This document shows, in pieces, positions 8,638 to 17,069 of a stretch of DNA of 64,000 bases. The notes beneath the pieces were generated by a model. It saw only the letters and a list, made by a program, of their open reading frames with translations, was not told where the DNA came from and ran no database searches. The DNA comes from a virus (taxonomy: Duplodnaviria; Caudoviricetes). Position 1 is the first letter of the stretch, and the number at the start of each line of letters is the position of its first letter. Location of the stretch: IMG/VR virus record IMGVR_UViG_3300036770_007283; one strand, given 5' to 3'. The position numbers were made by a program, and so were the translations under genes.

Positions 8638-10191
8638 TTATGTTTTAAAAACATATAATCTTTGTCCAGCGTCCCAGATCTTGTGCAAACCTAGCTCTTT
8701 GGCATGTTCTTTTTCTGAAAGCCCCCTGTTATCCATGTTGGCACGACATTTAAGCCTATTAAAAGTAGTTTTATAATCAGTCCATTCCCAACCTTGTGTT
8801 TCTTTATCTAAGACAAAACTATGATTCAATAAAAACTTTCCCGTTCCATATCTTAAATCTACCCAATAATGTATAGAAAGATTTCCAACGAGGTTAGTGA
8901 TTCCTTTCAATAGTTTTGAAAAAGCACCAACCACATTAGTATTTATTTTGGAGCAAAACCTTTCTACTTTAATAATCTTAGATTCTTGAATTTTATAAGA
9001 CATTATAGAAATTAGCTCTTCATTTAAGAAAAGTCCAATATGCTTAGCGGGCTTATAGCCTTTAATATGGTGTTGTTCTAAGAATGATTTAGCAAGTGCA
9101 GTAGTGACTTCTTTTAAGGTTGTTTTTCTAGCTCCTATTTTGCCTTGAGAATTTCCTATAGCGTTATTGATCATAGATTTTATGATAGGCATTTTAAAGT
9201 AAATTTCATCTGCACGAAATTGAAAAAGCCTAAGATTTAGGTCTTCATATTTTTTTCTCATTACAAAATGATAATCAGCAGGTAGCTTTTCTTCTGAATG
9301 CCAATATAGCCCATCAGCATTTAAATATATAGTATCAGTAATTTTAAAATCAGGTCGATATGAAAATCCGGCAATAGGTTGCTTGTTCCAAAGTGTTAGG
9401 CCTAATGAATTTGAAACAAGGTTTTCAATATCAGAAATCTTATGCACATAATTCTGACAGAATTCTTTGAAGTCTTCTTCTGCAAACTCTTTATTAATCT
9501 GTAGCCATTTATAGATTGCCATATCAGAAATATTATATTCTTGCGACCAAAAAGCTGGTGTTTTTCCGCAAACCAACGTTATCTGTCCGTTGTTGGCTTG
9601 TGTCTCTTGGATCTTCTTTCTTATTTCTTCAGATTGAAATGGATTTAGAACACCATATCTTTCAAGAAGTGTTGCCTCAGCTTTTGCTTTAATTTCTGGA
9701 TTTTTAAGAGTGCAATCAGAGCCATATCTTTCTCTTACGGTTTCAGAAAACTTTTGAAGTATGGCTTCACTTTTTAATGGTGAATCTACACCATAATTTT
9801 TAATGATGGTTGCCATTTTTTTGTCTTTAACTTCTTGGGATTGGGATGGATTTTCTACACCATATTTAGATAGGTTTGTTTGCTTTATCTTTTCTTTAAC
9901 TTGACTATTTTGAAATTGGTTTTCTGTGCCATATTTTTGAAGGTTAGTTTGCTTCTTTTTCTCTATGGCAGTTTTACTATGTGCAGCATTAACTACGCCA
10001 TGATTTTGCAACATAGTTTTTTCTCTGGCTTCTTTAACCTTGTTCGATTCTTTTTTGAAGCCATACATTTTAACCATTTTATTAATAAAGTAGGGGCTGC
10101 ATCCTGCCAGTTGAGCTAACTCAACCCAGCTTAGATTTTCAACAATATATTTTTGATAAAGCCAATCTTTATCCAAATTTGTTTTTTTCAT
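8638..10191 (-). CDS. Homing-endonuclease-like protein: N-terminal KQTNLxKYGVEN repeats, PD-(D/E)xK-like core, Hef-like C-terminus
   Basis: Repeats such as KKKQTNLQKYGTEN and KIKQTNLSKYGVEN; YRPDF...LNADGLYWHSE; GARK...FLEQHHIKGY...VERFCSK. Confidence 0.75.
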   Translation of the reverse strand: MKKTNLDKDWLYQKYIVENLSWVELAQLAGCSPYFINKMVKMYGFKKESNKVKEAREKTMLQNHGVVNAAHSKTAIEKKKQTNLQKYGTENQFQNSQVKEKIKQTNLSKYGVENPSQSQEVKDKKMATIIKNYGVDSPLKSEAILQKFSETVRERYGSDCTLKNPEIKAKAEATLLERYGVLNPFQSEEIRKKIQETQANNGQITLVCGKTPAFWSQEYNISDMAIYKWLQINKEFAEEDFKEFCQNYVHKISDIENLVSNSLGLTLWNKQPIAGFSYRPDFKITDTIYLNADGLYWHSEEKLPADYHFVMRKKYEDLNLRLFQFRADEIYFKMPIIKSMINNAIGNSQGKIGARKTTLKEVTTALAKSFLEQHHIKGYKPAKHIGLFLNEELISIMSYKIQESKIIKVERFCSKINTNVVGAFSKLLKGITNLVGNLSIHYWVDLRYGTGKFLLNHSFVLDKETQGWEWTDYKTTFNRLKCRANMDNRGLSEKEHAKELGLHKIWDAGQRLYVFKT

Positions 10192-10582: not shown

Positions 10583-11257
10583 TTATTTTTTGGTGCCATA
10601 AGCATGTGATTCATTTAGGCTAGACTGGGTAATGACAATGTAGGTATCAAACTTCTGTAACTCTGCAATGGTTCTGGTATTGGTATAAGACATGCCTGAC
10701 TTAAGACCACCCACAAACCCATCATCACCGTAGAGAACTTCTTTTAAGGATCCTACGTATGGAATATGGGTAGTTACACCTTCGGAACAAGTACCTTCTT
10801 TTAGGCCGCCACGAAGATCTTTTTGTACTGATGCTGAGGCCATACCTCGATACATCTTTTTGGGAACTTCGTCAATATAAACTAAACTTGAGGGTGACTC
10901 ATCTGTTCCAGCAAAAACGCCACCACACATAACAGCATCTGCCCCACCAATAATTGACTTAACAACGTCGGATGGATAACGGATTCCACCGTCTGCAATA
11001 ATTGATGGATATTTCATGTTGGGATTATTTTTATTATAATATTTGAATTTATGCCTTGCTCTAGCGCAATCGACCACAGAGGATAAAGTCGGGATTCCAA
11101 CGGAGCTTTGGATGCGTGTTTTGCAGATTGAGTTGTGTAAAAATACACCATTTGAAGAAAATGAGTGTGAATTTTCTACTGTGATATCATAGACCATTCC
11201 TGAAAAATGGAATCTCTTAATATTCGACGGCTTGGAGAGTTTGTATTTCTTTAGCAT
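10583..11257 (-). CDS. guaB: IMP dehydrogenase C-terminal half preceded by a 42-aa split-intein C fragment
   Basis: MLKKYKL...VYDITVENSHSFSSNGVFLHN|SICKTR; IIADGGIRYPSD; KMYRGMAS; EGVTTHIPY. Confidence 0.93.
   Translation of the reverse strand: MLKKYKLSKPSNIKRFHFSGMVYDITVENSHSFSSNGVFLHNSICKTRIQSSVGIPTLSSVVDCARARHKFKYYNKNNPNMKYPSIIADGGIRYPSDVVKSIIGGADAVMCGGVFAGTDESPSSLVYIDEVPKKMYRGMASASVQKDLRGGLKEGTCSEGVTTHIPYVGSLKEVLYGDDGFVGGLKSGMSYTNTRTIAELQKFDTYIVITQSSLNESHAYGTKK
11132..11257 (-). mobile_element. Split intein IntC
   Basis: Block F VYDITV, terminal HN, Ser at +1. Confidence 0.9.
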
Positions 11258-12293
11258 CTTTTAACTCCTGAATTATTTTCAGCAATACGTATGTTTTTTC
11301 ATAATCTTTAGATTCTGACTCTCTAATTCTATAAATAACAAAGTTATGTTTTTTTGCTAATTCATCTTTGTAGGCATCATTATTTTTTATTTTTAAAATT
11401 TTATCCACTGATAATATCGGATGGTTATCTTCTTCTGGGTGCCAAAAATCTCCATCAAATTCGACCAATATTTTATCAAATAAGCAGGCATCATAATAAC
11501 GGTCACCCAGTCGATATGTTCTTTTTATATTGTTTGGACCAACAAAGTATGATAACATATCAAAATATTCTGTTTCTGGTTTTGAGGCAATTGAATCTTT
11601 GAAAATATCTGAGTAATCATTTACTGCAAACTCATTAATTCTTTTTTTCAATACCCACGAAGAGATGTTTAATTGATAAAGATCAATAATTTTTTGATAT
11701 GAGGTTGTTTTTCCTTCAGACTTTATATAGTCAAGATATTTTATAACGACATCCATTGTCTCCTCAGGGACTTTTATATAGCAACCATTTTTTTCTCCAA
11801 GGTTGGAATAAACTAACTGATGCTTTTTCGCATTTGAATCTATAGTTTTCTTAGATGCTATCTTTAATTTAATCCACCAATTCTTAATGGTTCTAAAGTC
11901 ATGACCAGATATTTCTGATATCTTGTATGCGGGATACTTTGGTGATTGGTATTTTTCCCAGTAATCTTCTAGCGATTCTTTTGTTAATCCAATTTTTGTA
12001 TAATTATCCTTGAAAGTTTCTAATAATGATTCTGAAATTTGCTTCTTTCTTTCTTTTGGAACTGCACAATATCTAACGTGATCTCCTACATATTTTAGAT
12101 ATTTTCCTTTTTCAAATTTAGTTTCATTTCCACAGCCACAACCACAAGTTGGTTTTACGTCATTATGTGTATATTTTAAAACGTAGCTTTCTAAAGTTAT
12201 AGAGTGATCTTTTTTAAGATGAAATGAAAATTGAGCATATCTTCTTGAATCTTGATAATGAGAAAAATCCTTGTCACAAAGTAAGCATTTCAT
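11217..12293 (-). CDS. Free-standing Vsr-like/PD-(D/E)xK homing endonuclease between the guaB halves
   Basis: YYDACLFDKILVEFDGDFWHP...D..KD.LAKKHNFVIYRIRE; N-terminal C2H2-like and CGCGC motifs. The start was moved to ATG 12293, which follows a GGAGG SD. Confidence 0.8.
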   Translation of the reverse strand: MKCLLCDKDFSHYQDSRRYAQFSFHLKKDHSITLESYVLKYTHNDVKPTCGCGCGNETKFEKGKYLKYVGDHVRYCAVPKERKKQISESLLETFKDNYTKIGLTKESLEDYWEKYQSPKYPAYKISEISGHDFRTIKNWWIKLKIASKKTIDSNAKKHQLVYSNLGEKNGCYIKVPEETMDVVIKYLDYIKSEGKTTSYQKIIDLYQLNISSWVLKKRINEFAVNDYSDIFKDSIASKPETEYFDMLSYFVGPNNIKRTYRLGDRYYDACLFDKILVEFDGDFWHPEEDNHPILSVDKILKIKNNDAYKDELAKKHNFVIYRIRESESKDYEKTYVLLKIIQELKDAKEIQTLQAVEY

Positions 12294-12323
12294 GCGACTA
12301 GCCCTCCGCATACTATGCTTTTG

Positions 12324-12332
12324 TATTAGCAG
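12324..12332 (-). promoter_or_regulatory. Candidate late promoter CTGCTAATA
   Basis: Same 9-mer at 41283 and 45100; lies inside a CTAGCC/GGCTAG stem upstream of the endonuclease RBS. Confidence 0.45.
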
Positions 12333-12357
12333 ATTTGGCTAGAAAAATTAAAACATG

Positions 12358-12666
12358 TTATTCATCACCATGGCCCACCAACATGTGATTATCGTTAATT
12401 TCTCCTGCTGGAAGCCAAAATGCAAAATTATGAATATTTTCATCTGTAAGCTTATCAATATCCTGCACATTAACAACGTAGTATTTGTGATCTGTTGTGG
12501 TTTCTATTCCGTTGATAGAAATAACTTCTTCATTTTTAAGAGAAGTAATTATATCAGTTACAGAATTCCATTCTCCAGAGTGGGTAAGAACTACATCTCC
12601 CAACTCAATTTCTGAAATGGGAATGTCACCACGCTTCGTCAAAACGGTGGTTGTAGGCATTAAACA
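12358..12666 (-). mobile_element. Split intein IntN
   Basis: Cys1 after GIGGG, block B-like TTDHKYY; the ORF ends 102 aa later. Confidence 0.9.
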
Positions 12667-13200
12667 ACCGCCTCCTATCCCTACCCGTACCGCATCGACA
12701 CCTAATTCAATCATAAATTCATAGCCATGAAAAGTAGCAATATTTCCTGCCATGATTGGTAGTCCTGGATAAGTTGCCTTTACCCAGTCTACCATTTCTT
12801 TCATTAGAATAGAGTGTCCATTAGCAACATCAATAGATACCATATGGATTGGAATTGCTGCTTCCATTAGAGTGGTGAGTCTTTTTCTTTCAACCTCTCC
12901 CACTCCGATTGCCGGCACTACCCATTGATTTTCTTGGGCGACTTTTTGACATTCTTCTACTTGACGTTGAGGATCCATAAACCTATGGATAATGCCTAGA
13001 CCTCCAAGCCTTCCTAATTCGATAGCCATATTGGATTCTGTAACAGTATCCATAGGCGAAGAAATAAAAGGAATTTTTAGCTCTAGGGGTCCAACTTTTG
13101 TAGAGGTATCTGGTTCGGAACGAGAACGAATATCGGAATAAACTGGTGGGATAAGAATATCGTCAAAAGACAAACCTTTGATTCTTTTGTGTTCAATCAT
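12358..13200 (-). CDS. guaB: IMP dehydrogenase N-terminal half (no CBS domains) fused to a 102-aa split-intein N fragment
   Basis: LSFDDILI, PFISSPMDTVTE, GGLGIIHR, IDVANGHS, VRVGIGGG|CLMPTT. Confidence 0.93.
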   Translation of the reverse strand: MIEHKRIKGLSFDDILIPPVYSDIRSRSEPDTSTKVGPLELKIPFISSPMDTVTESNMAIELGRLGGLGIIHRFMDPQRQVEECQKVAQENQWVVPAIGVGEVERKRLTTLMEAAIPIHMVSIDVANGHSILMKEMVDWVKATYPGLPIMAGNIATFHGYEFMIELGVDAVRVGIGGGCLMPTTTVLTKRGDIPISEIELGDVVLTHSGEWNSVTDIITSLKNEEVISINGIETTTDHKYYVVNVQDIDKLTDENIHNFAFWLPAGEINDNHMLVGHGDE

Positions 13201-13809: not shown

Positions 13810-13984
13810 GGCTGTATTCTAGAACTTCTACGTCTAGATTGGAATTGCATTGAATCCAAGAAACATCTTCTTTAGATAGATTCTTGTGAATATCAACTCT
13901 TCCACAGACCTTATTGGTGACTTTGACGGTGATATTTTTATCACTCCACTTTTTTGGTGCTTTACTATCCATGATTTCCTCCAT
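13772..13984 (-). CDS. Hypothetical protein
   Basis: Short ORF packed in an operon. Confidence 0.55.
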   Translation of the reverse strand: MEEIMDSKAPKKWSDKNITVKVTNKVCGRVDIHKNLSKEDVSWIQCNSNLDVEVLEYSLDKKRRPKTKDD

Positions 13985-14831
13985 TCAAATCCTCCAAGCT
14001 TTTAACACTAAATCCTGCGGCGTTTCTATGTCCACCGCCTCCGGGAAACTGCTTTGCAATTTCGGAAACATCTAAGCCTTCATCTGTTGATCTCAAGGAA
14101 AAGACGAATTCTTCTCCATCATAATGATACCCGGCAGAAAAAGATTCGCCAACTGCTAAATCACCCAACATTTCAGAACGAAAGAACGGTGTGTTTAAAA
14201 TAGGAACTTCAAAACCTTTGATCTTGGCACGATATGTATTTTTAATAATTGAGTTTATCAAAGTTTTGTTATATCTAAGGATTGCAGCTCCTTCGTTTAA
14301 TAATTTTGAGAAACCCTCTGGTGTTTCTATCAGGTTATTTAATTTATCCCAAGTTTCAAAGTTTTTGGGATAAGAATCTATTGCGGTTAGCAATTCTCTT
14401 GCATAAGGTAAAATGCAATTTTGTGGACCATGCAAATCACGATCCTCGATATATTGAAGTAATTTTGGTGTCTCGTCATCAGGAAAGCAATAATCCCAGG
14501 CCAAGATAGCACCGGAATGATCCATGTCAAAATGGGTAAAGCTTAGATCGCCAAGTAATTTCTGTGCAGATAAGTGGTGATCTAAAATAAGAAACTTTTT
14601 AGCAATTTCATTTATAACAATGGAGTCTTCTCGTTCCAAGGAAAAATCTACCATAATAACTTCCCGATCTCTTAAATCTTCGGGATTCAAACCTTTGAAG
14701 GGAGCAAGAATATGGGCTAATGGCTGGTAGTCTATTGTGTCACTATATTTCTTCCAAAAGGAAAAAGCCGCACCAAACCCATCAGGACATTCATCATGAT
14801 AAATTAAGATTGGCTTGTTAGTGGTTGTCAT
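13965..14831 (-). CDS. DHH/DHHA1 phosphoesterase
   Basis: YHDECPDGFGAA, MVDFS, LDHH, GGGGHRNAAGF. Confidence 0.9.
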   Translation of the reverse strand: MTTTNKPILIYHDECPDGFGAAFSFWKKYSDTIDYQPLAHILAPFKGLNPEDLRDREVIMVDFSLEREDSIVINEIAKKFLILDHHLSAQKLLGDLSFTHFDMDHSGAILAWDYCFPDDETPKLLQYIEDRDLHGPQNCILPYARELLTAIDSYPKNFETWDKLNNLIETPEGFSKLLNEGAAILRYNKTLINSIIKNTYRAKIKGFEVPILNTPFFRSEMLGDLAVGESFSAGYHYDGEEFVFSLRSTDEGLDVSEIAKQFPGGGGHRNAAGFSVKSLEDLNGGNHG

Positions 14832-15847
14832 ATTGTCTCCGGAGAGAATGAATATTCTATCGCTTTAACTAAATGACTTCTTTCTGATACCTCTTGTGAT
14901 ATAAAATTTGTCATTTGTTTTAAATCTTTAAAATCCTGTAAGGTTTGTTTATAGAATAACTTATAAACCCCTACTTGATCAAGTATATCACATTTACTAA
15001 TAATTAAATTAGTTGTTCCAGAAATATTAACCGCCTCAATTAAGTAATCCAAATTTAACCAGTTAACAACCCTTCTTCTCCCCGTTGTAACACCATACTC
15101 TTGGCCTAAACGACCGATTTCAGATAGAATGGGATCTTCCAACAATGACTTGGGGAACAATGGGTCTTCACCGCTCCTTGTATCATAAATTTTAGCCGCA
15201 CCATAAATATTTTTAATTTTTTGTGGTGGGAAACCTAAACTACAAGCAGCATAAGGAAGTGTATTACTAGAGGTTACATAAGGATAATTTCCTTGATCTA
15301 AGTCAAGCCAGAATCCCTGGGCACCCTCGCATAATATCCTACCTTGAAGGTCACTTTGCCACAATAAATTCTTAGAAAGAACTTCTTTGGCTAAGACACC
15401 AGTTCTTGCAGCTTTATCAGCATAAACTGGTGCAATCCCTCTTGAGGTGGTTCCTAATTTGGCAGCTAGATTTTGTTTATCTTGCTCAATATGCTTTTCT
15501 TGAATAATATGACAATTAGGATGAACCTTAACCAGCGAGATATCAAATCCATTATCTGACAGATAATCCAATTCTTTGTTAAAGGATTCTGGATGCAAAA
15601 CACAACCTGGCCCGACTAATGATTGGACGCCATAAAAAACGCCAGAGGGAACTAGGTGTGTTTTGTATTTTTTACCATTAACAAAAACTGTATGTCCCGC
15701 ATTATTTCCACCGCCCCACCTAGCCACTAATGAATAATCACCTGAGCTTGCTAGTTGGCTTGTAATTTTTCCTTTTGCTTCGTCGCCTGGGGTTTAACCC
15801 CAAGCTAAACCAACAACGATATCTACGCTGTCAATCTGCTTGGACAT
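14828..15847 (-). CDS. purA: Adenylosuccinate synthetase (short type); frame interrupted by an in-frame TAA at 15794-15796
   Basis: SD AAGGAGGT, ATG 15847: MSKQIDSVDIVVGLAWG*TPGDEAKGK, in frame with ARWGGGNNAGHT, CEGAQG, YPYVTSSNT and YGVTTGRRR. The ORF track shows only the part after the stop. Confidence 0.88.
15785..15805 (-). other. Stop-codon hairpin GCTTGGGGT-TAA-ACCCCAGGC inside purA
   Basis: 9-bp stem (one G-U pair) with the TAA loop in frame; removing 12 nt restores W-G-D-E. Confidence 0.85.
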
Positions 15848-15891
15848 TAAGCACCTCCTTTATTTTAAGGGTTGTGGTTCTAGCTTTAATC

Positions 15892-17037
15892 TTATACGTA
15901 ATCTTCTTTCCAAGTAACTTCTTTTGATTCACCCTCTCCACGAGCCAACCTACCTTGGATTTCAACAAAGTTTTTTACTTCTTCAAGAACAGAGGGTGTG
16001 GTGGAATTCAAGAATGTGAAAATATAGTTTTCGTTAAAATATTCCATGCTAATTAAATCTTTAAAATGAAACAGGAAGTTATTTACAACATTAGATAATG
16101 TCTCCCTATCCATTGAAAAAATTGTCCTTCCGTAAGCATCCTCAACCTCAACTACACTTTTTGAAATTTCTAAGTCAGCTTCCTTCCCAGACTTAATCTT
16201 TTTATTCAAGTCTTCTGCTTCATAGAAAATTTGGGTAATTTCTTCGCAAGTGTTTTTGTCAAACTGTAGCTTATATCTCTTGGAATATTTAAATGCCCGT
16301 TCGGCAGCCCAAATTTTGCCAATAACAGAAGAATTTCTACGAACATTTCCAAAGGCAAGTAGCCGTTCTTGAAACAATTGTTCGAGTCCGTCCGCGAAAT
16401 AGAAGCTTCCATTATAGTACGCAGCACAACAATTTAAGATATCAAAAGTATCAAATAAAGTTTGAATATCCTTGATTTTCTTTTTAATTGCTTGGATCGG
16501 CTTGCAGAAACCATTTGTTTTTTTAGAACGAAAGGTGTTAGCCCAAGAAGTAGAATTTGAGATAGAGTGAATTGAATCTAAACCAAGAACATCCATCCTA
16601 TCCTTATAGAATGCTCCTGACTGATAAAAGGTGGGCGCACAACCATAAATTTTATGGTTCTTGGAAGGTGGGTCTACTTCATGATCACCTACCAAGAAAT
16701 AGAATGAATTGCCTGCATCCCAGATTACATTATCTTCCATAAACCAAAGATCAATATCACCAAACTTAAAAGATTCTGTTTTTTCAATTTGGGTATTTCC
16801 AGGCGTAGTAGTGTTGTTAAGAATTTCAAAAATCTTAAAATTATCAAAAGAAGCTTTGTTATCAGAATTTAGAATCTGCTCTAGCTTTTCTTTGACAGCC
16901 GGATTTTTAAGGCACATAATATCCTGATAAAGCGAAACAATAAACCCACCTGCAATAACTGGATTTAGCTTGAGGATATTTTCGGGCACAAACATTTTTA
17001 GAATTTTTTCTGCATTCTCATGCTTAACAATGTGCAT
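15892..17037 (-). CDS. Pol-beta-superfamily nucleotidyltransferase-like protein (CCA/poly(A) polymerase-like head)
   Basis: IAGGF...GDIDLWF; later FDTFDILNC and RAFKYSKR. The start was moved to ATG 17037 (GGAG SD, downstream of a promoter). Confidence 0.55.
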   Translation of the reverse strand: MHIVKHENAEKILKMFVPENILKLNPVIAGGFIVSLYQDIMCLKNPAVKEKLEQILNSDNKASFDNFKIFEILNNTTTPGNTQIEKTESFKFGDIDLWFMEDNVIWDAGNSFYFLVGDHEVDPPSKNHKIYGCAPTFYQSGAFYKDRMDVLGLDSIHSISNSTSWANTFRSKKTNGFCKPIQAIKKKIKDIQTLFDTFDILNCCAAYYNGSFYFADGLEQLFQERLLAFGNVRRNSSVIGKIWAAERAFKYSKRYKLQFDKNTCEEITQIFYEAEDLNKKIKSGKEADLEISKSVVEVEDAYGRTIFSMDRETLSNVVNNFLFHFKDLISMEYFNENYIFTFLNSTTPSVLEEVKNFVEIQGRLARGEGESKEVTWKEDYV

Positions 17038-17069
17038 ATAAACTCCGGGGCATAGCTCGGCCCACAAAA

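Follow-up and report, generated by a model that had tools for sequence, protein, structure and literature searches.

Anatomy of the interrupted purA gene

The stretch of DNA analyzed here (the window) comprises 64,000 nucleotides (nt) of a virus of the Caudoviricetes and is part of a 147.7-kb IMG/VR record (IMGVR_UViG_3300036770_007283), which was judged to be approximately 44% complete, implying a large phage. On its minus strand lies purA, the sole adenylosuccinate synthetase (AdSS) gene of the record, and the reading frame of this gene is broken by 12 nt that begin with a stop codon. We consider it likely that the ribosome hops across these 12 nt, i.e., that purA is decoded by programmed translational bypassing. 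This reading is favored mainly because 14 other versions of the insert occupy the same spot in related phages.

The gene is preceded by a Shine-Dalgarno (SD) sequence, AAGGAGGT (positions 15853 to 15860; read directly on the minus strand, like all purA features below), located 5 nt ahead of an ATG codon (15847 to 15845). Exon 1 (15797 to 15847) consists of 17 codons, MSKQIDSVDIVVGLAWG, and ends with TGG (15802 to 15800) and the putative take-off codon GGT (15799 to 15797). The in-frame stop TAA (15794 to 15796) adjoins the take-off codon and, together with ACC, CCA, and the putative landing codon GGC (15787 to 15785), makes up the 12 nt that would be skipped (15785 to 15796). Exon 2 (14831 to 15784) resumes with GAC GAA GCA AAA GGA AAA, corresponding to the equivalent of Asp13 and the DEAKGK of the phosphate-binding loop (P-loop), and remains open for 318 codons up to the AdSS end and the stop codon at 14830 to 14828. 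Deletion of the 12 nt restores W-G-D-E-A-K-G-K. An earlier note on this DNA, made from the sequence alone, had described the SD sequence, ATG 15847, the order GGT-TAA-ACC-CCA-GGC-GAC, and an otherwise intact gene; every element of this layout was found on the minus strand, and the 318 open codons after the gap agree with the last point.

The product was assigned to PF00709 in Pfam (E = 1.3e-76), and its PDB matches include the AdSS of B. anthracis (E = 1e-56) and that of E. coli (3e-48). The Gly and Asp residues flanking the gap align with G12 and D13 of E. coli AdSS in solved structures, which places the gap within the phosphate-binding loop, beside the catalytic Asp. Identity as PurZ was rejected, since the PurZ structures 6fko and 7vf6 matched at only 5e-15 and 2e-12, compared with 1e-56 for PurA; the PHROG name of the gene is generic. 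Past the stop, the earliest in-frame start is a GTG (15725 to 15727), which yields a 299-amino-acid (aa) product without the P-loop and, as the earlier note had stated, without the catalytic Asp. This 299-aa frame is nevertheless the one chosen by gene callers (P0001). The 19 codons upstream of this GTG, from GAC 15784 to TTA 15728, encode the P-loop and are conserved. Because gene callers truncate purA or pick the wrong frame, the auxiliary purine metabolism of large phages is misread.

The gap is also part of a hairpin (15785 to 15805) consisting of a 5' arm, GCTTGGGGT, formed by the Ala-Trp-Gly codons, a TAA loop, and a 3' arm, ACCCCAGGC. In the structure computed with RNAfold, GCUUGGGGU pairs with ACCCCAGGC through 9 bp, including one G.U pair, and the take-off codon thus lies within the 5' arm of the stem, which has a UAA triloop at its tip. 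The 9-bp stem with the TAA loop proposed earlier is borne out by a folding energy of -15.8 kcal/mol, compared with -4.5 ± 2.3 for shuffled sequences (z = -5.0). Two further details of that proposal fared less well. A competing helix, GGTTTA/TAAACC, is present in the window allele but not conserved among relatives, e.g., L012 (one of the alleles described below), and a G in the right arm, which had been regarded as special, is simply the complement of a GCC Ala codon seen in relatives. No copy of the hairpin core was present in the window other than at purA, with up to two mismatches allowed. A scan of the 147.7-kb record for take-off, stop, and landing sites returned more than 1,000 chance candidates under loose criteria and was too noisy.

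To the extent that contigs can tell, the inserted DNA itself is real. Logan contigs of three runs cover the insert site with zero differences at a depth of 17 to 29; the three runs belong to one subsurface-metagenome study and are possibly the source samples of the record. This agreement excludes an assembler artifact, which had been listed as an alternative in the earlier note, although a minor insert-free subpopulation may persist, as contigs hide rare variants. In run X3, the Logan assembly splits at 15804 to 15833 into two contigs. Because these overlap by exactly 30 nt, the split represents a branch in the assembly graph, and a co-occurring strain variant is therefore probable. Such a variant probably differs near 15803 (the wobble position of the Ala codon within the 5' hairpin arm) or near 15834, and the break hints at a nearby strain variant rather than at loss of the insert.

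An allelic series at the Gly12/Asp13 junction

A protein search returned thousands of purA homologues, of which the nearest 120 were inspected. Most of them are 330 to 340 aa long with an intact MxxxADVVVGLAWGDEAKGK start, and approximately 23 of the 120 were called short (270 to 308 aa, starting past the P-loop) or in a frame entering GDEAKGK. Among GenBank phages, a nucleotide search with the purA region found no match, and a protein search for relatives of the window gene found distant AdSS only. We assembled alleles from the DNA of the short and odd-frame homologues, together with relatives from IMG/VR and metagenomes, and obtained 15 distinct inserts, including that of the window. All of them are situated at the Gly12/Asp13 junction, between TGG GGT and the GAY GAR of the P-loop. 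The inserts, which were seen in contigs of numerous samples and sources, are 7, 8, 11, 12, 12, 13 (four alleles), 14, 29, 30, 30, 32, and 33 nt long, 10 of these 15 lengths not being multiples of three. One and the same allele was found on different contigs and in different samples and archives (JGI, ENA, and Logan).

In all 15 alleles, a stop codon stands straight after the take-off codon, namely, TAA in 10 short forms and TGA in 5 long forms. The short TAA forms are those of the window and L025 (12 nt each), L011/L200, L035/L195, L182, and L184 (13 nt each), L012 (14 nt), L176 (11 nt), L175 (8 nt), and L178 (7 nt). The long TGA forms are located at L010:1415-1443 (29 nt), L026:1471-1500 (30 nt), L181:1414-1443 (30 nt), L005:2972-3003 (32 nt), and L185:1400-1432 (33 nt). 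Hairpins with z scores of -3.2 or lower against shuffled sequences were obtained for 12 of the 15 alleles, with varying loops and arm lengths. The short hairpin forms have the same design as the window allele, in which the 5' arm is the coding Ala-Trp-Gly segment, the stop lies in the loop, and the gap is made up of the loop and the 3' arm. Among the five long alleles, four (L005, L026, L010, and L181) carry a UUCG tip (CC-UUCG-GG or GC-UUCG-GC), and a G-free, A-rich tail closes all five. The L005 hairpin is composed of 11 bp plus a 5-bp extension (dG of -20.3; z = -5.0), that of L010 has one extra pair, and the L005 and L181 hairpins differ by a compensatory change from C-G to G-C.

The SD and start context of the window gene recurs in other short-form alleles. 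All hairpin short forms, as well as L185, have a 3-residue N-terminal extension (15839 to 15847 in the window; also in L011, L012, L025, L035, L176, L182, and L184), which reads MS[KR] in ATG-start alleles, LSR in the TTG-start allele L184, and LSM in L185. The SD-start context is much the same in all extended alleles, AAAGGAGGT...(A/T)TGTCC. A start of MI(D/N) with 14 residues to the junction is found in intact genes and in most long forms. To judge from these sequences, the MS[KR]-type extension could belong to a transferable cassette or serve as a bypass signal.

All 15 alleles have kept a start codon with an SD sequence, and both of their exons are open, exon 2 over 318 to 329 codons. Between pairs of interrupted genes, exon 2 shows saturated synonymous divergence (pS of 0.63 to 0.93) with a pN of 0.15 to 0.26, and omega is approximately 0.1 where computable, including the comparison of the window with L011. 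The last 12 codons of exon 1 are conserved as protein in the 15 interrupted alleles, the changes being mostly synonymous; the numbers of synonymous and nonsynonymous changes are 2 and 0 (window and L011), 6 and 1 (L005 and L026), and 6 and 1 (L182 and L185). A dead gene would not stay so across such distances, and the interrupted gene is therefore still read. Thus, purA appears to be functional as a gene despite the interruption, with both flanks under strong purifying selection. The recurrence of the hairpin and the stop in relatives, the compensatory change, and the low dN/dS on both sides, along with the common junction and the constant GGT plus stop, provide comparative support for the hop suggested in the earlier note, from GGU over UAA-ACC-CCA to GGC. 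A recent pseudogenizing insertion, which the note had given as an alternative, is rejected in view of an omega of approximately 0.1 at saturated synonymous sites.

More generally, it is very unlikely that the gene is inactive or truncated, the insert being a knockout or the product being the P-loop-less 299-aa protein from GTG 15727. The choice of this frame by gene callers would fit such a view, and phage auxiliary metabolic genes are often dispensable. However, both flanks are open and have diverged at low omega across lineages, and the selection includes exon 1 and the P-loop segment ahead of the internal start. Besides, according to the structure alignment, a protein without Gly12 to Lys18 loses both the phosphate-binding loop and the catalytic Asp, and the exact junction is preserved in all 15 alleles.

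Based on phylogenetic analysis, we found that the interrupted genes all belong to one 32-sequence subclade, where they are mixed with 17 intact genes, and that a short form is sister to a long one at three points of the tree. At least 7 changes between the intact and interrupted states are needed on this tree. A single origin of all interrupted genes was rejected when the 15 genes were constrained to one clade (approximately unbiased test, p = 0.0005), and hence the inserts have been repeatedly gained, lost, or exchanged; the flanking GG(Y) repeats would permit precise loss. Carriers of like inserts are 76 to 94% alike at the third codon positions of exon 1 versus 43 to 62% in exon 2, with L035/L195 and L012/L184 left out of the exon 2 comparison because of indels. 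The likeness in exon 1, which extends over only 17 codons, hints at a constraint imposed by the 5' arm or at transfer of a 5' cassette.

Precise loss might also operate as a switch at the DNA level, whereby the insert disappears from some genomes, e.g., by slippage between the GG(Y) repeats, and only those genomes express purA. Short direct repeats do flank every insert, and the interleaving of intact and interrupted genes on the tree indicates precise gain and loss over evolutionary time. The contigs of the three runs were interrupted only, though rare variants would be hidden in them, and a switch leaves the conserved stop, hairpin, and G-free features unexplained. We therefore regard it as extremely unlikely.

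Probable decoding across the gap

Ordinary recoding would consist of UAA readthrough or a +1 or -1 frameshift, which would place 2 to 5 extra residues before Asp13. Shift paths of +1 or -1 are indeed open in those alleles of 7 to 14 nt whose length is not divisible by three, and a single stop blocks the 12- and 30-nt alleles. The short alleles would, however, require UAA readthrough (the two 12-nt alleles), a +1 shift (13 and 7 nt), or a -1 shift (14, 11, and 8 nt), i.e., three different mechanisms for near-identical cassettes. L005, L010, and L185 fail outright, as every readthrough path and every +1, -1, or +2 shift path meets a stop. Furthermore, the extra residues would fall inside the GTP-binding P-loop beside the catalytic Asp, and the peptides inserted under ordinary decoding (KSPG, NYPG, LNTPG, and LTPG, among others) are not conserved. 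For these reasons, ordinary recoding is quite improbable. An alternative genetic code was rejected as well, because recoding of a stop cannot mend inserts that are not multiples of three; long open reading frames (ORFs) are open under table 11. In contrast, one mechanism, by which everything from the Gly codon to the triplet before GAY is skipped, would cover all alleles and always give W-G-D-E.

The codons at the two ends of the gap are not arbitrary. The take-off codon is GGT in 15 of 15 interrupted alleles, whereas intact genes have GGT (28 genes, 36%), GGA (22), GGC (20), or GGG (7) at the same position. The landing triplets of the family are GGT, GGC, GGA, AGT, AGC, and TGT, each of which can pair with the anticodon GCC through two or more neighboring bases, the middle base among them. 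In all 15 alleles, the landing triplet is the earliest GCC-pairable triplet past the take-off codon, with the exception of triplets in the UUCG hairpin tips; in the window gap, GGC is the sole triplet that can re-pair with this anticodon. The scanned portions of the gaps contain no G in 138 nt, compared with a strand average of 20%. The tails of the long forms (82 nt) are free to vary and are also G-free, whereas the C-run of the short forms is dictated by the hairpin.

The same regularity can be written as a boundary rule for a micro-intron, UGGGG/U-stop...G/N-GAY, which fits 15 of 15 alleles. Under this explanation, 7 to 33 nt would be cut from the mRNA and the ends rejoined, e.g., by an endonuclease and an RNA ligase, and the hairpins could act as recognition sites. 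We know of no bacterial or phage pathway for excising such micro-introns. No intron or other RNA family of Rfam was found in the window, and none matched positions 14500 to 16500 even at an E value of up to 1; inserts of 7 to 14 nt are far under the size of self-splicing elements, and the stems are plain, with no bulge-helix-bulge. Moreover, splicing predicts neither the invariant stop after the Gly codon, nor the bias to GGT, nor the landing rule for the Gly anticodon, nor the avoidance of G in the gaps and their tails. The ribosome is therefore favored over splicing, and a micro-intron appears improbable.

In the hop that we propose, the ribosome would initiate at ATG 15847, make the 17-residue N terminus, and pause when peptidyl-tRNA(Gly) sits on GGU and UAA occupies the A site. 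The tRNA would then release GGU yet remain in the P site while the mRNA advances by 12 nt, and it would re-pair with GGC, after which decoding would restart at GAC. The expected product is an ordinary AdSS whose P-loop reads W-G-D-E-A-K-G-K, and the hop would leave the junction peptide QIDSVDIVVGLAWGDEAK. The hairpin probably impedes access of the release factor and aids the forward movement of the mRNA. The hop as such, the hairpin's part in it, and the efficiency of hopping are inferred. Neither a phage-encoded release factor nor a tRNA-Gly was found in the available 147.7 kb; the tRNAs of the record are Ser-GCU, Arg-UCU, and Ile-UAU (G000 124053-146227, outside the window).

Several points weigh against bypassing. 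In the window allele, UAA readthrough with a 4-residue insertion is formally possible and is the sole alternative path. The landing codon is not strictly matched, being GGU or GGC in 6 of the 15 alleles, GGA in 4, and AGY or UGU in 5. Accordingly, the matched Gly codons pointed out in the earlier note hold for GGT and GGC of the window but not for the family, which also lands on GGA, AGY, and UGU. No allele has an SD-like element 5 to 7 nt before the landing site, the gap ahead of it being free of G, and the alleles of 7 and 8 nt lack a hairpin. A nascent-peptide signal like that of gene 60 of phage T4 (discussed below) is doubtful, because exon 1 is an ordinary AdSS N terminus of 14 to 17 residues. 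In addition, the alleles are related, and the counts of 15 of 15 are therefore not independent trials or events. There were no RNA runs among the runs listed for purA.

As a more tentative extension of the bypass model, the short forms of 11 to 14 nt may represent a minimal and mechanistically distinct bypass that operates without a nascent-peptide signal or an internal SD sequence. In such a minimal form, the hairpin composed of the just-read Ala-Trp-Gly codons and the gap would zip as the mRNA exits the P site. The zipping would bring the first G-containing triplet to the waiting Gly-tRNA, and two base pairs would suffice for landing. If this is true, the short and long forms at one site would be a natural allelic series resulting from endonuclease-driven turnover, and this series would reveal the fewest signals that suffice for a hop.

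Known bypass systems and mobile elements near purA

The published natural cases of bypassing are gene 60 with its topoisomerase homologues, the byps of Magnusiomyces, and the 10-nt blocks in the terminase of phage phiHau3, and according to a 2022 survey, reports of comparable bypassing in other phages were still lacking. Our full-text literature search found no paper linking bypassing with adenylosuccinate synthetase. Work on efficient programmed bypassing in bacteria has been confined almost entirely to a single system, that of T4 gene 60 and the topoisomerase homologues. If our interpretation is correct, purA would be a second, independent bypass family in another gene, with 15 natural alleles at one codon junction. 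These alleles, which have a T4-like stem-loop, a minimal hairpin, or no hairpin, would form a ready-made mutational series bearing on the signals sufficient for a hop, the distance over which a peptidyl-tRNA slides, and the codon-anticodon pairing needed for landing.

The conserved features of gene 60 homologues are paired codons, always read by one tRNA, a stop (UAG, sometimes UGA), a CC-UUCG-GG tip, an A/U-rich stretch, a mini-SD sequence 5 to 7 nt before landing, nascent-peptide residues, and a MobA element (bioRxiv 10.1101/2022.08.31.505936). The purA family has the stop, the UUCG tip, and the A/U-rich stretch in looser form, and possibly also the paired codons, which match as GGY in only 6 of the 15 alleles. 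Like purA, T4 gene 60 (Huang 1988; Manning and Atkins) has a Gly take-off codon with a stop at once after it, a stem-loop whose 5' arm contains the take-off codon, and a patchy distribution. The T4 gap (NC_000866) reads GGA, TAG, and CC-TTCG-GG, followed by a stretch complementary to the stop and take-off codons, and RNAfold pairs 10 bp with the take-off codon in the 5' arm. The long purA form matches this layout with GGT, TGA, CC-TTCG-GG, and the complement. The UUCG-type alleles further resemble T4 gene 60 in having cognate-like GGN triplets buried in the 3' arm and an A/U-rich tail before landing. Their hairpin-tip triplets, which would be left unscanned, mirror T4, in which a cognate GGG located toward the 5' end of the gap is reportedly not scanned (bioRxiv 10.1101/2024.12.09.627546).

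On the other hand, purA differs from gene 60 in the site, the AdSS P-loop at codon 14 to 17, and in the phage group. It has no mini-SD sequence and no long nascent peptide, and landing can occur on two adjacent pairs. The purA gaps measure 7 to 33 nt compared with 50 nt in gene 60 (20 nt at least in one gene 60 clade). The 12-nt gap of the window is thus shorter than the 50 nt of gene 60, as had been remarked earlier, but it is not uniquely short in view of that 20-nt clade and the 10-nt blocks of phiHau3.

In the terminase gene of the Streptomyces phage phiHau3, 10-nt blocks are bypassed at a UUA codon, and the junction peptide was detected by mass spectrometry in E. coli after UUA had been swapped for UAA (Antonov et al. 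2023, PMC10732093). This system is similar to purA in that a very short gap lies in an essential, conserved phage gene and local RNA structure brings the landing codon near, whereas the pausing there is due to a rare sense codon linked with host development, and the bypass is expected to be inefficient (PMC10732093). The byps of Magnusiomyces capitatus mitochondria are reported to be 27 to 55 nt long, to occur in 81 copies in 12 genes, and to have an unassigned sense codon in the A site. They are described as mobile-like and are comparable to the purA inserts as short noncoding inserts in conserved genes that are precisely skipped. Unlike byps, the purA insert is confined to one site in one gene, and its hairpin motif has no second copy in the window. 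In E. coli, hops that occur at a low level over a stop or a hungry codon (Weiss, Gallant, and others) are described as unprogrammed and with an efficiency of about one percent. The hairpin-less purA alleles of 7 and 8 nt resemble these short hops, with re-pairing a few nt downstream; unlike them, purA has a fixed site in an otherwise conserved gene, usually with a strong hairpin.

In the mobA/gene 60 system, cleavage of the target site is prevented by the insert. In 1 of the 15 alleles (L176), a homing-endonuclease-like gene (DUF7487/TnsA-like, phrog_3339) lies directly upstream of purA, on the opposite strand, which is a further likeness to T4 gene 60. Unlike gene 60, purA is not regularly located beside an endonuclease gene, and none adjoins the window purA. 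A consistent endonuclease neighbor of interrupted purA was not found; the upstream gene encodes a conserved protein of approximately 190 aa or a Gad2-like protein at interrupted and intact loci alike. The patchy spread and the neighbor of L176 suggest, by analogy with mobA/gene 60, that the cassettes may be traces of mobile elements rather than a purine regulator. A mobA/gene 60-like origin of the purA inserts is plausible, and a connection with homing endonucleases is no less likely than a role in regulating AMP supply, which the earlier note had envisaged.

Mobile elements have left many traces around purA. A 517-aa ORF with two DUF7487 stretches (8638 to 10191, minus strand), kin of the endonuclease-like gene of L176, is located 4.6 kb from the window purA (from the purA stop at 14828 to the ORF start at 10191), and the same genome contains an intein-split DnaE. 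Between the DUF7487 ORF and purA, an IMPDH/GMP reductase gene is present in pieces (10583 to 13200, minus strand). One ORF (12358 to 13200) covers IMPDH positions 1 to 185 and the start of a Hint domain, another (10583 to 11257) has an intein C-terminal splicing motif followed by IMPDH positions 178 to 344, and a 364-aa ORF without a Pfam match (11217 to 12311) lies between the two. To judge from its sequence, this break has the appearance of an intein, or else of a split intein into which a gene has been inserted.

The gene upstream of purA (15892 to 17067 in the window, minus strand; L011:265-1368, L181:295-1350, and L184:221-1297) encodes a protein of 350 to 390 aa. Its relatives are tagged PF26128 (Gad2), and the window copy has no Pfam or PHROG match. 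Downstream of purA, a DHH/DHHA1 phosphoesterase gene (phrog_4771; 13965 to 14831, minus strand) is joined through an ATGA overlap, and this gene likewise follows purA in L010, L176, L179, L181, and L184.

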